From contig OZ024743.1 of assembly GCA_964016885.1 (NCBI GenBank), forward strand, positions 109,306,001 to 109,370,000: DNA of 64,000 nucleotides. Reading direction: 5' to 3'. A program made the position numbers and the translations under genes. The notes under the pieces are model-generated. The model had not been told where the DNA came from. It saw only the letters and a list, made by a program, of their open reading frames with translations, and ran no database searches. The number at the start of each line of letters is the position of its first letter. Position 1 is the first letter of the stretch. This DNA comes from Eledone cirrhosa (taxonomy: Eukaryota). Shown piece after piece: positions 16,235 through 62,572 of the stretch.

Positions 16235-16974
16235 GTCTCCTTTGCTTCTGCTGAGCACCGCCAGATAGTGATAGCCGCTGGTCTTTTTGCATAGCTACGG
16301 GTTTGTAAATGTTTATTTATAAAGATACCGCATTTCTTTAGAAATACGAAATTACAATACATATTTGTATACAGCAATGCTCGAAATTAAATAGTAATTT
16401 CTATTATATATATAAATATATATATATATATATATATACATATATATATATATATATATATATGTATATAAATTTGAGTTGTGTGTGTGTGTGTGTGTGT
16501 GTGTGTGTGTGCGTGTGTGCGTGTGTGTGTGCGTGGGTGCGTGTGTAAGCATATGACGGATATCAATAAGCGACGAGGAAATACATTTATAAGAAAATGA
16601 AGGAAGCTCTGATGCAGAAATTATCGGCAATTATGCTATAAAAAATTTTGTAAAAATAGGGCAAATTCCCTAAAGTCGTAAACAATGGCGCCATCGTTCA
16701 CTACGAGGGGTCGAACTCCGTTTTATCAGATACATCATATATACGCTAATCATATATATATATATATATATCTATATAAACGGAAAAAATGAAACGAAAT
16801 TTCATTTCTCACTCTTAGTACGGCTCTTACTTAAATATAAGTATGTATACGTACATACATATATGTATACAGACATACAGTAGTATGTATATATATACAT
16901 AGATGCACATATATATATATATATATATATATATATATATATGTACGTATGGAATTACCGAACATTAATTATAA

Positions 16975-17160
16975 AGGGCGGTGGATTGGCAGTATCAGTA
17001 GAGGGTCGGACACCATGCTTTTCAGCATAGTTACGTCCCTTTACGATCTGAGTTCAAATCCCGCCAAGGTTGACTTTGCCTTTCATCCTTACGGGGTCGA
17101 TAAAATAAAGTACCAGTAATGCACTGGGTAATTGCTGGCCTTGTGCCTAAAGTAGAAACA
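16975..17160 (+). mobile_element. Full-length SINE with 11-bp target-site duplication
   Basis: A and B boxes present; attaattataa at 16964-16974 and 17161-17171. Confidence 0.92.
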
Positions 17161-17261
17161 ATTAATTATAATGCTCGATGTGATTGTAAACAAACATCTC
17201 GAATTAAGCCGTTCAATATTTAGCAACCATCGTTGCCCTTTTGTTCAACACTGACAAATGA

Positions 17262-17304
17262 ACAATGTACTAGTTTCAACCTTATTAGCTATTGTCAGCA
17301 CCGT
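17262..17304 (-). ncRNA. Family A HHR, degenerate (CTGACAA core)
   Basis: acggtg-CTGACAA-tagctaataaggtt-GAAA-ctag-TA-cattgt. Confidence 0.6.
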
Positions 17305-17644
17305 ATACCTTACTGCCAGATGATTGAATGTCTGAAAGTATATATTTTCCTTATGCATATTAACGGATGAGCAGCCTAATTTGCATATCGAGTGAGTTAA
17401 TCGGCCGGGCGCACCAAAAACGATAAAGGGAAAAATGAAACGAAATTTCATTTCTCACTCTTAGTACGGCTGTTACTTAAATATAAGTGTGTATATAAAT
17501 ACATACATGCACACATAGATATATGTAAGTATGGATTTACCGAACATTTATTATAATGCTCGCTGTGTTTGTAAACAAACCTCCGAATTAAGCCGTACAG
17601 TGTTTAGCAACCATCGTTGCCCTTTTTTCAACACTGACAAAGTA

Positions 17645-17687
17645 ACGATGTACTAGTTTCAAGCTTATTAGCTATCGTCAGCACCGT
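17645..17687 (-). ncRNA. Family A HHR, intact
   Basis: acggtg-CTGACGA-t AGCT aata AGCT t-GAAA-ctag-TA-catcgt. Confidence 0.88.
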
Positions 17688-18183
17688 ATACCTTCCTACC
17701 AGATGATTGAACGTCTGAAAGTAGATACTTTCCTTATGCGTATTAACAGCTGAGCATCCTAATTTGCATATCGATAGCTAATAAGCTTGAACCTAATACA
17801 TCGCTTCTTTGTCAGTGTCGAACTAAGGTTGCTAAATACTGTACGGTTTTATCCGGGATGTTTGTTTACAGACACACCGAGCATTATAATAAATGTTCGG
17901 TAAATCCATACGTACATATATATATATATATGTGCATGTATGTATATATATACATACTACTGAACGTCTGTATACATATATGTATGTATGTATACATACT
18001 TATATATATATATATATATATATATATATATATATATATATATATATATATATATATATATATATATATATATATATATATATATATATATATATATATA
18101 TGTATATATATAAAGAAAAAGAGATGAAATCGAAAATGCAACTGGAGTCTTATTTTTTTTTAAATATATATATTTATTTGGTT

Positions 18184-18221
18184 CCTTTACCGGTTTCGCA
18201 GTTCTTCTGCTTTTCAAAAGG
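18184..18221 (-). ncRNA. Family B minimal HHR, U3-A8 core variant
   Basis: Mirror image of 18290-18327. Confidence 0.75.
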
Positions 18222-59149: not shown

Positions 59150-61330
59150 ATGGCAGGGAATCTTGATCTTGTGCTGCATTTTGAAATCTTTCAGTGTCGC
59201 GTTTTACTTTCTTTTACTCAATTTGAAGAATTTGTATTTGCCTTTTCTTCTGTATTAAGTTTTTTCAGTTATTGCCAAGCAGGGCTTTTTATTGTCACCG
59301 TTTTAATATAGATTACTGGAGATCTGTTTTCAATTTTGATTTTATTCATATTTGCTGTTACTTGTGTTTTAATTTTTCTTATAATTTTTTTAATGATTTC
59401 TGCTTGGGTATTGAAAGTGTTGAGGTTCTTGAAGATACAAAACAAATGTTCTTGTTTTGCGCATGTTCATAACTATTTGTATTAACATTCCATTTTTCAA
59501 ATATGTTATTTCTGTAGTCCTACAGAGCTTATTTTCAATGCTTTTTTTAGTTTCATCAGGCATCTTCACTCTTGAGGTCTTGGTAGATATTATTTTTCTA
59601 CATTTGCCATTCCAAAATATATTATAAATGCAGTAATTATTTTTCATGTTTTTCTGTCTAGTTCTGCGGATTATTTTAGGGTGCAGTTCAGAATGTCGAA
59701 ACTGTAGCGTATTACGGTTTATTTACAATATCAGTGATTATTGCATTATTCATTCATTTAGCGCTGCCTTATGTATTAATCTAATCTACTTATACTAATC
59801 CTTTCTAATCTTATCTTTCATCTGTCCGTTGAATCCCGCCTATTTCTTTGAGTCATAATATTTGTATATCTATGTTCAATATAATTCTCTTTTCCCTGTT
59901 CCTTTGTCTAGCGTGATATTACAGTTTTTACTCTTGTTTTCCTCTCTTCAGATTTGCCTTGATATAGTTGTTTAGTCCACACTTCATGTTTATTTTTTTC
60001 TGTGAATCCATGTACTGCTTGCAGCTATGTTTCAAATTGTCTCTCAATTGAAACGGACAACTTTACTTCAGCCATATACCTATATTTCCTTGCCATGGCA
60101 TTTATTTCCAAGTCCCCTCCTAATTAATATTTCAGACAATAGTTTCAATGTTCCTCAGAAGAGGAGTGGTGAAATGGAGCCGCTTTGAAATATTCATTTG
60201 TTAATTTGGATGGACTCATTTTTTATACAGCTATCGTTTCTTTTTATCTCCTGGACATGTGTGCCGTATACTTATAGCCTGTTTAATGATTATTTTTATT
60301 GTTGGTATTCTCTCCGACAGGTTTGTGGTTATGACATTGACAGTGGAGACTTCTGGTGTCCTTGGATCTGGGGTTACCTCCCTATTCACCACAATAAGTG
60401 CTGAGCTGACCAGCCGCAGGTGTGAGCCTCGTGAGTTGGAATGGCTCTTCCAACGCATCTCCCTTACCATCCTCCGGGGAAATGCGTTCTTTATTCTGCC
60501 TGCTGGGGTTGCGGGGAGGGCGAGAGGGATAGAGGCTATGACAGTGGGAGTTCGGCTCTTCCACATTCGGACCATATCCCTCTGGTTATGTTCATTATGT
60601 ATAATATCTAATTAACTACTAATTGAGAAACAGTGTTTATAGCAGTGTTTCTCCACGTATAAAGAACACTTCCATGGCATGTTGAGGTTGTGTCCTGTTC
60701 TGCTGTTTACCGTTAGAGCTACGATGATGAATAATTGATAGTTACAGCCGCATGAGCCTTAGCAGCATCCTTTCTACTATTATGGAAACATGTTCTTTTT
60801 TTGTTGTTTTCAAGAACTTAGCCAAATCTGTGATATTATTGCAGTTAATGTCTTGTAAGTTGTTAGGAACCATATGTGTTTGTAGTTTTGAAGAATTATT
60901 GTGTCATTTTTCTCGCGGAATAGGATGAGTTCTCCCCTGGAATGTTTGTCTGATGTCATTAATGAGACCTTTAATATATTATTAATTTTTTTGAAATTAC
61001 AGCTTGTGCCCTTGTAAAATAGTTCAACCGAAAGATTGGGATTTTATGTTTCAATATATTATTCAGCGTCTGTGTTTATTGTTCATACCTTTCTGGAGCT
61101 AGCTACGCGCTGCAGATCACAATACACCAACCCGTTCTTTTCTACTTCTTTTAATTTAGGGTTTCATTTAGTATATTGTATTTTCACTCATTTCCTGGGT
61201 TGGAGAAAAATTTCTGGTATTGTTGTTATTAGGGCATTGGGTTCTCAGTATCGGGAGAGCAGCAAGAAAAATATTTGGATGTGTTTAGTTTCGACTTTTT
61301 AAGCTCTGAGATAAAATCATGCAGCCGTCA
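59150..61330 (-). mobile_element. Heavily decayed R4/Dong-like non-LTR retrotransposon RT region
   Basis: Reverse-strand fragments IFQSGSISPLLF, YMD, MKCGLN, VIRYSFDIL, ELDRKT resemble GIFQGDSLSPLLF / LYMDD / MEFGLDKC / PVLxYSF; boundaries approximate. Confidence 0.6.
60305..60585 (+). mobile_element. 3' fragment of an RLE-type (CRE-like) non-LTR element nested in opposite orientation
   Basis: VETSGVLG...EPRELEWLFQRISLTILRGNA resembles the CRE C-terminal ETxG...QRxSxAxQRGNA motif; GC-richer than the flanks. Confidence 0.7.
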
Positions 61331-61445
61331 TCTTTTCTTTTCCTGTTTCTGCTATTGATAAGACATTGTTCGAACGATGAATCTGGGTCGATAAAATCGA
61401 CATTCTCTCTTGAACAAACTTCCTCGTCTGATGCCATAATGAAAA

Positions 61446-61512
61446 ACTACTACTACTACTACTACTACTACTACTACTACTACTACTACTACTACTACTA
61501 CTACTACTACTA
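61446..61512. repeat. (CTA)n microsatellite
   Basis: Direct reading. Confidence 0.95.
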
Positions 61513-61519
61513 GCACCAC

Positions 61520-62060
61520 TGACCTAAGAGAAATATAAATAAATAAATATATACACAAGCACAATGACAACAAACACATGTAAATACACACTAGTAAACT
61601 AAGATAGAATACAATAACCAAAACAGTCACCCAAACGCGAAAACACACCAAACGCTATACACACTTGCAAACGCATGCGCAGAGAAGAAAATAAAAATAA
61701 ATACATAAATAAATAATTAAACAGATTAAATAAAGATGGCGTAGATATACAGGAGGAACATAATCATAGCACTACTGACGATGTTGCAGATGTGCAATGA
61801 AAGAACTTTGTTAGACTATATATATGTGTTCGTGTCTATATTATAACTGTAGTTTTTTACTGTTGGTCATTCAATGGTAAACATTGAGGACCGAATAAAT
61901 TAACTGATATAAAATATACAGAAGCGAAAACCAACCAAACAGTGAGTGTGTTCTGTTATTATTTCTGGCAATATTATTATAACAATACGACCCGCCCCAA
62001 GTATGACAATATTTGTTTTGACACACGATTTCATATAAAAAACCTGGCAAAAGAAATACA
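61520..62060 (+). mobile_element. Diverged family C pLTR with HHR at about 61771-61812
   Basis: aagatggcgtag upstream as at 46446; CTGACGA-t GTTGCA gatg TGCAAT-GAAA-gaac-TT; 61920-62050 matches the pieces at 21600-21793. Confidence 0.7.
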
Positions 62061-62120
62061 CTCACACATACACACACACACATATATATATATATATATC
62101 ACATATATGTATATACGTAT

Positions 62121-62572
62121 ATATACTTATATTTAAGTAACAGCGGTACTAATAGTGAGAAATGAAATTTCGTTTCATTTTTTCCATTTATCGTTTTCTG
62201 TGCGCCCGGCCGATTAACTCACTCGATAAGCAAATTAGGCTGCTCATCCGTTAATATGCATAAGGAAAGTATATACTTTCAGACGTTCAATCATGTGGCA
62301 GGAAGGTATACGGTGCTGAGGATAGCTAATAAACTTGAAACTAGTACAGCGTTCCTTTGTCAGTGTTGAACAAAAGGGCAACGATGGTTGCTAAACACTG
62401 TACTGCTTAATTATGGAGGTTTGTTTACAAACAAACCGAGCATTATAATAAATATTCGGTAAATCCATACGTACATATATATATATATATATATGTGCAT
62501 GTATGTATATATATATATACATACTACTGTACGTCTGTATACATATATGTATGTACGTATACATACTTATAT
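62121..62572 (+). mobile_element. Family A locus 5: one full monomer with short terminal redundancy; HHR at 62310-62352
   Basis: Starts and ends in atacttatattt; acggtg-CTGAGGA-tagctaataaactt-GAAA-ctag-TA-cagcgt. Confidence 0.9.

Follow-up and report, generated by a model that had tools for sequence, protein, structure and literature searches.

A hammerhead retrozyme family in Eledone cirrhosa with the insertion footprint of Penelope-like elements

A 64,000-nucleotide (nt) stretch of the Eledone cirrhosa genome (GenBank assembly GCA_964016885.1, contig OZ024743.1, positions 109,306,001 to 109,370,000; hereafter the window, always meaning this whole stretch) carries at five loci a short repeat with a hammerhead ribozyme. 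The repeat is real, abundant, and well structured: it is a non-coding retrozyme of the kind that lacks long terminal repeats (LTRs), with a type I hammerhead, and it represents a further case of a published class rather than a new class. Most of its copies end at one of two fixed 3' sites, mainly running into (TA)n tracts, and whenever both ends of two head-to-head arms could be classed, the arms used different sites, which is how the Penelope-like elements (PLEs) of the same genome also end. We consider it somewhat likely, taking all parts of the account together, that this is a non-autonomous retrozyme copied by PLEs into (TA)n tracts, the template probably being a ligated circular RNA monomer. 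In PMC7229834 and 10.64898/2026.07.22.740005, the mobilizer and the template of animal retrozymes are argued from co-occurrence and homology.

RESULTS

An abundant and partly young family

The window is microsatellite rich (GC content, 35%), and the retrozyme at its five loci (Table 1) has about 30,000 hammerhead copies in the genome. In the 3.0-Gb assembly searched, the 32-base hammerhead core gave 23,791 exact matches versus 0 for a control, a relaxed core gave 31,751 versus 2, and the 25-base stretch just 3' of the cleavage site gave 27,161. Copies are spread across many contigs at 99 to 100% identity. In the 32 loci that best match locus 3 at the DNA level, 139 of 20,952 sites (0.66%) differ from one unit, and part of the family must therefore be very young.

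There are two subfamily groups, A (466 to 538 nt; locus 3) and C (419 to 433 nt; loci 1, 2, 4, and 5). Fifty-four units measured from cut to cut, 419 to 586 nt long and each with a type I hammerhead, came from 24 of the 64 loci examined. A preliminary description of the window had reported the same monomer at all five loci, which was borne out, with periods of 383, 419, and 466 bp; these were measured, and for locus 3 the choice of anchor gives 466 or 486, owing to a 20-bp difference between the AT tracts of its two copies. The reported absence of a conserved open reading frame (ORF) also holds, in that the longest ATG frames in eight monomers (GC, 0.36 to 0.38) span 51 to 112 amino acids (aa), are subfamily specific, and are mostly translations of AT repeats. 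The proposed head-to-tail arrangement is incomplete: loci 1 and 4 are head to head, and locus 2 is one arm with nested insertions.

A sister family, R2, has units of 465 to 469 nt and 3,096 exact cores. It is homologous to the retrozyme (z of 14 to 24) and shares the two-ended anatomy described below, with a 73-nt tail, while its hammerhead has the canonical G10.1-C11.1 pair and a GUC triplet. Examples lie at L165:1290-2600, L106, and L244 (C1:14043000-14052999), where L and C numbers are our handles for loci and contigs.

Two fixed 3' ends, one for each arm

Insertion ends were mapped in the window and in 55 regions of 9 to 10 kb surrounding the first 100 matches to the core along contig C1, giving 105 arms. 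Four of them were excluded as local duplicates, all at L153, where two whole two-arm insertions each have a second copy nearby (800 bp and 2,586 bp away). Among the remaining 101 arms, 83 end at a fixed 3' site, 39 at a proximal site (E1) and 44 at a distal site (E2), although the two scoring intervals together make up just 7.7% of the monomer. The sites lie 59 to 62 nt apart, and 76 of the 83 classed ends run into a TA repeat. Different starting points at different loci had been described as free circular permutation, a reading that these fixed 3' ends overturn, as only the 5' ends vary.

Twenty-six pairs of arms lie head to head. Eighteen of them combine E1 with E2, none combines E1 with E1 or E2 with E2, and eight have one unclassed end, so that all 18 fully classed pairs use one site of each kind (p = 8e-6). 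Both arms belong to the same subfamily group in 26 of 26 pairs. The arms overlap at the junction mostly by 0 to 5 bases; the junctions at L118, L124, and L137 are symmetric, with 16 to 20 bases, and those of the window lie at 17772-17774 (locus 1) and 39234-39235 (locus 4).

The 5' ends behave differently from the 3' ends. Those of paired arms, 52 in number, are distributed over the whole monomer (chi-square p = 0.39), and a single arm among 101 begins within 6 nt of the cleavage site, compared with 2.8 expected. Because the arm loci had been chosen by the core, a further test began from the 25-mer downstream of the cut, and the core was present upstream in 82 of 82 distinct contexts (92 loci). 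With no pile-up at the cut and complete read-through across it, the copies do not derive from monomers starting at the cut. The permuted starts had been offered as an argument for a circular template, and they lose that force here, being ordinary 5' truncations of the kind seen in autonomous PLEs of the same genome. Most arms are shorter than two units and 9 of 105 exceed 1,000 bp, so that long head-to-tail arrays like those of newt satellite 2 are not the main form.

An insertion footprint shared with resident PLEs

The window contains pieces of several PLE families. A search with a resident PLE protein gave 123 matches, and a single close named relative, also the top match, came from Octopus vulgaris (69% identity within the searched region). 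Three large families were compared in full, from 15,040 (P1), 12,945 (P2), and 39,352 (P3) first-look candidates in genome searches, with 150 scored for each; at least two more, P4 and P5, are represented by fragments. P2 has an open frame of 775 aa and P3 one of 1,238 aa; Pfam returned no family for the P3 frame, which was placed by its features among proteins with reverse transcriptase (RT) and GIY-YIG domains. All three families have two fixed 3' ends running into (TA)n, with tails of 49, 67, and 60 nt, respectively. Published marks of PLE insertion are a bias toward microsatellites, partial tandem copies, 5' truncation of an inverted copy, and a tail confined to one end (PMC8557442), and the tail has been described as lying between two internal RT start sites, with both target strands cut and extended (PMC11167929). 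Since the two-ended footprint of the retrozyme recurs in P1 to P3 and in these papers, the retrozyme inserts like a PLE, and its mobilization by PLEs is, in our judgment, very likely. The footprint thereby supports the class first suggested for the repeat, a non-LTR retrozyme or satellite-2-like family copied by PLEs.

Neither adjacency in the regions sampled nor similarity to the PLE ends compared accompanies this link. No PLE ORF adjoins an arm in any of the 55 regions, in keeping with the earlier statement that the repeat is not attached to an RT; pieces of PLE ORFs occur in 11 of them, the nearest 491 bp away and on the opposite strand. Arms longer than one unit run into another monomer and never into an ORF, and comparison of the retrozyme with the ends of P1, P2, and P3 showed no homology (z at most 1.2; 60 shuffles).

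A relaxed scan detected a hammerhead in P3, about 170 nt before E1, and none in P1 or P2. P3 is young, with a minimal hammerhead in both of its pseudo-LTRs (pLTRs) whose loop III, GGAC, is not palindromic (L235:2578-6984 region); end fragments of P3 lie in the window at 43095-43882 and 46300-46696. The hammerhead, the tail length, and the motif TAT/CGT at E2, which is common to the retrozyme, R2, and P3 and in which three bases outside the target agree, make P3 a first, weak candidate for the mobilizing partner. Other routes to a partner were rejected. Tail length differs between R2 (73 nt) and the retrozyme (59 to 62 nt) and is therefore set by the template, and a likeness of the P2 3' end to E2 found no support. 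Thirty-eight junctions were 5' to 5' or other retrozyme-retrozyme (R1-R1) joins and eight were mixed; the chimeric junctions L003 (with P3) and L140 (with P2) are explained by insertion into the AT tract of the retrozyme with deletion or duplication. At L003:729-1867 a P3 end fragment is joined 5' to 5' to the retrozyme within this tract, probably as a nested insertion.

The hammerhead and the monomer fold

In the retrozyme, stem II consists of four pairs on a U.U mismatch with an AAYA loop, and stem III is a single A-U pair with the palindrome CUAG before a GUA triplet. A bulge lies 5' of stem I. The preliminary description counted seven hammerheads in the window, and seven complete type I motifs are indeed present, plus one truncated motif, although two carry a catalytic-core substitution (G5 to U and G8 to A); the other five keep their catalytic bases, and three of the seven have a stem I mismatch. 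Variation of N7 among C, T, and G, the CTAG palindrome before GUA, and the predicted cut after position 31983 were as first described. A compensatory shift claimed for stem I proved to be a swap of G.U for U.G wobbles (14 GU and 11 UG among 31 aligned rows). Across the same 31 rows, stems I and II are 98 to 99% paired. Tandem hammerhead units were found at L124, L130, and L162, with intact dimers at the latter two; in the window, the single tandem pair lies at locus 1, and one of its cores is altered by G8 to A.

The base of stem II (10.1/11.1) is U.U in place of the usual G-C, which R2 does have. The type I topology and core are also those of Rfam Hammerhead_HH9 (RF02275), against which locus 3 scored 18.6 bits and R2 28.4 bits, both below the gathering score of 52; a whole-window Rfam scan had no hammerhead among the matches listed (the best 150 of 186). 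Folds of the hammerhead by itself were no better than those of shuffled sequences (z of -1.4 to +1.0; seven sequences). In the diverged R2 the hammerhead has been kept, with two-sided changes in stems I and II, a conservation that is partly ascertained because R2 was first met through a hammerhead scan.

The whole monomer, folded as a circle, is more strongly structured. Circular folds gave z values of -11.3 for A and -8.4 for C (25 shuffles each) and -7.6 for R2, and those of the opposite strand were weaker (-4.5 to -6.7). The branched layout is common to A, C, and R2: a long stem spans the cut, a small hairpin carries E1 in its loop, and E2 falls in a linker. In the 31 rows, 92.8% of cells are paired and 25 of 102 pairs show two-sided changes; none of 500 shuffles reached this level, and slid controls fell far lower. 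RNAalifold found two-sided changes in 21 of 75 pairs.

Tandem arrays

At L149 and L166, units of two kinds alternate in ABAB arrays, with a weakened hammerhead at every second junction. They were rejected as evidence for a dimeric circle, as the variants are locus specific and local duplication is simpler. An R2 array with 15 hammerheads is a mosaic of two- and three-unit blocks.

Retrozyme loci and other features of the window

TABLE 1 Retrozyme arms and hammerhead cores in the window (position 1 is the first base of the stretch)
Feature	Position	Strand	Remarks
Locus 1, long arm	16776..17774	-	About two units, two hammerheads; 3' end at distal site E2; SINE-like insert at about 16974-17160
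Locus 1, short inverted arm	17772..18005	+	Head to head with long arm; proximal 3' site E1, followed by (TA)n
Locus 2, single arm	21407..22150	-	Ends near E2; AT tract split by nested insertions
Locus 2, nested inverted piece of same element	21799..21930	+	Ends at E2
Locus 3	31542..32309	+	Young subfamily A, 1.6 units, 5' truncated; 3' end at E2 into (TA)n
Locus 4, inverted arm	38789..39235	-	3' end at neither site (truncated)
Locus 4, direct arm	39234..39607	+	3' end at E1 into (TA)n
Locus 5	62101..62572	+	About one unit; 3' end at E1
Hammerhead core	17268..17298	-	G8 to A and stem II mismatch; predicted inactive
Hammerhead core	17651..17681	-	Intact
Truncated hammerhead	17772	+	Locus 1
Hammerhead core	22090..22120	-	G5 to U; predicted inactive
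Hammerhead core	31953..31983	+	Intact; predicted cut after 31983; stem I 31947-31952 with 31984-31989
Hammerhead core	39109..39139	-	Intact; one stem I mismatch
Hammerhead core	39359..39389	+	Intact
Hammerhead core	62316..62346	+	Catalytic bases kept; stems I and II each with one mismatch

We take the insert in locus 1 to be a short interspersed nuclear element (SINE)-like sequence resembling octopus tRNA-derived SINEs. Beside this locus lie a perfect two-arm end fragment of P2 (18109-18468) and, on the minus strand, a 3' piece of P1 with a GIY-YIG domain (18507-19835), which shares a TA tract with locus 1 and the P2 fragment. The three are unrelated insertions stacked in one microsatellite, and the idea that the PLE pieces at 18109-19835 supply an ORF to locus 1 was rejected, as they are separate insertions in the same tract. 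A decayed P2 copy lies at 32717-35633; full P2 copies (L091, L093, L094) have two overlapping frames of about 409 and 775 aa. End fragments of P4, a family related to P3, occur at 21571-21796 and 61839-62060, one of them nested in the AT tract of locus 2.

Other repeats in the window include a near-perfect palindrome, (CT)n(TA)n(AG)n, at 40461-40630, which gives many spurious Rfam microRNA matches, and a 2-kb inverted repeat (49693-51685 and 52738-54762; 90% identity) with a 0.4-kb direct repeat (48932-49339 and 52320-52736) beside it. The frames scanned in these last two had no Pfam match.

DISCUSSION

A proposed copying cycle

In the account that we favor, a locus with two hammerheads would be transcribed and its ribozymes, probably held together by the CUAG palindrome as a double hammerhead, would cut, though weakly, given the U.U on which stem II rests. 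The extended stem I could keep the two ends of the monomer together for a host ligase. A PLE protein would then cut both strands of a (TA)n tract, with one DNA end priming cDNA at E1 and the opposite end priming it at E2. Both cDNAs would run back through the ligated junction, stop at random, and be joined 5' to 5' over 0 to 5 bases of microhomology or at a fold-back palindrome, after which some arrays may grow in place by DNA-level duplication.

A bolder form of this account, to which we give slightly less than an even chance, is that a circular ribozyme RNA of about 430 nt serves as a minimal, protein-free template for a paired Penelope-type enzyme acting on both ends of a cut (TA)n tract, one start always being E1, in the loop of the small hairpin, and the other E2. 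The retrozyme would then be an independent replicon, and one for long enough to have lost any likeness to the ends of its helper while its branched fold was kept by compensatory changes.

Circular or linear template

If mobilization by PLEs is granted, a circular template seems fairly likely. The stable circular folds of A, C, and R2, with their shared branching and two-sided changes, favor it. Circular monomers have been shown for coral, mussel, and axolotl retrozymes (PMC7229834), and at L246, L250, and L255 (two sites) private substitutions are present in every copy that covers the site, which fits one template per insertion. The alternative is that PLEs copy an uncleaved linear transcript of a multi-unit locus, the hammerhead being weak or serving another step, so that no circle is needed. 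We regard this as a serious explanation but an unlikely one. A linear template should pile 5' ends at the transcript start or carry 5' flank, and the paired 5' ends are instead spread round the monomer. Also against it are the long stem that closes the monomer across the cut in all three folds and the partly ascertained retention of a hammerhead with two-sided stem I and II changes in R2. Among the 139 variants, 13 sites recur between loci, close to the roughly estimated chance number of about 10, which also speaks against it.

Other observations weigh against the favored account and its circular template, and some of them are what a linear template would lead one to expect. The hammerhead looks weak on paper, with U.U at 10.1/11.1 and a one-pair stem III, and palindromic helix III motifs are reported to need a second copy (PMC4209133). 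In vitro, unprocessed RNA was the dominant substrate inserted by a PLE, hammerhead mutants left insertion unaffected, and no transcriptome sequencing (RNA-seq) ends were reported at that hammerhead (PMC11167929); among Xenopus retrozyme dimers, only one of nine was cleaved (10.64898/2026.07.22.740005). P1 and P2 form partial tandems with no hammerhead detectable in the relaxed scan, and tandems therefore need no ribozyme. Read-through of the cut site fits a circle but is equally predicted by an uncleaved multimer. Most private variants (111) occur in a single copy, with 16 in some copies and 11 in all, and L164 and L257 each have a private variant that only part of the copies in both arms carry, the pattern expected of a two-unit template. 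Arms of the same insertion are closer to each other than to the median other copy in only 40 of 67 comparisons. The B variants of L149 and L166 are confined to their own locus (two and three matches; two of two tests), and together with the mosaic R2 array they indicate that arrays expand locally, so that arrays are no proof of rolling-circle copying. The controls applied to the folds ignore relatedness and the structure was drawn from the same sequences, and the 55 regions were chosen by exact hammerhead match from the first 22.5 Mb of one contig.

Other origins for the repeat

Two further explanations dispense with a separate retrozyme or with retrotransposition. The monomer could be the pLTR of an autonomous PLE family outside those sampled, its copies being the 5'-truncated ends of that family; such a layout matches, P3 has its hammerhead about 170 nt before E1 and a 60-nt tail, and in Xenopus 24 of 57 retrozyme families match known repeats, 21/22 of them PLEs (10.64898/2026.07.22.740005). 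Only three PLE families were compared in full here, and at least two more (P4 and P5) are known in pieces. We still find this origin improbable, given that arms longer than one unit continue into monomer and never into an ORF, that none of the 55 regions has an adjoining PLE ORF, and that the ends of P1, P2, and P3 share no homology with the retrozyme; the retrozyme may descend from a pLTR that is now extinct, which would be compatible with the account that we favor. Least credible of all, and very improbable, is a satellite or foldback repeat that spread at the DNA level by unequal crossover and duplication with a relic hammerhead. Local array growth is real, and whole insertions have been duplicated at L153, but the copies are dispersed over many contigs at near identity and are strand polar, their 3' ends being fixed, their 5' ends random, and their targets (TA)n, and the fold is stronger on the hammerhead strand (z of -8 to -11) than on the other.

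Comparison with known systems

Retrozymes of coral, mussel, and axolotl, as described in PMC7229834, resemble the present family in their type I hammerhead, short low-GC non-coding tandem units without LTRs, and strongly self-paired predicted circle, and PLEs were proposed there as the mobilizer. In its U.U at the foot of helix II the family is reminiscent of axolotl HHR_Amex2, and in the palindromic tetraloop on its one-pair helix III it is reminiscent of HHR_Amex1 and newt satellite 2 (PMC7229834). The monomers here are somewhat longer (420 to 540 nt, compared with about 170 to 400 nt) and mostly form one to two units in head-to-head arms rather than long arrays. The family is further set apart by having two fixed 3' ends, with (TA)n as its target; the word "inverted" is absent from the main text of that paper. 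Expression and circles were shown for the published families, one of which, in mussel, has about 5,000 copies of 350 to 390 bp; those of the present retrozyme are putative.

Vertebrate non-LTR retrozymes have been interpreted as non-autonomous PLE sequences on the grounds of co-occurrence and pLTR homology, in a survey of 35 genomes that included no mollusc (10.64898/2026.07.22.740005). They share with the present family co-occurrence with PLEs, tandem hammerhead units, and local array amplification; the link drawn here comes from an insertion footprint, in the absence of homology to the three PLE ends. Endonuclease-containing (EN+) PLEs and their non-autonomous relatives such as MRC1 show the same 5' truncation, partial tandems, inverted 5'-truncated arm, one-end tail, and microsatellite or AT-rich target (PMC8557442, PMC11167929). 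The retrozyme differs from EN+ PLEs in lacking an RT or GIY-YIG ORF and in having a full-size hammerhead with an extended stem I in place of the minimal PLE type. Its tail is longer than the 30 to 40 nt described in those papers and falls within the 49 to 67 nt of this genome's PLEs.

No cephalopod retrozyme appeared among the papers listed by literature searches, although cephalopods may be listed in the supplements of PMC7229834 and 10.64898/2026.07.22.740005. The giant squid genome has 235 matches to Rfam hammerhead-1 (PMC6962438), and a 2026 repeat annotation of O. vulgaris gives 31 recently active PLE families, with no "ribozyme" in its main text (PMC13282606).

Implications

With the retrozyme, an octopus-like genome gains a large ribozyme repeat that is probably unannotated. 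In a young family of tens of thousands of copies, the ends record the copying step as a PLE footprint of two start sites, one for each DNA end. These ends tie the retrozyme to PLE machinery, and with intact P2 and P3 frames at hand, the question of its template becomes testable. If the retrozyme is indeed an independent circular replicon, its insertions would amount to direct genomic evidence, in a cephalopod, of how animal retrozymes are copied.

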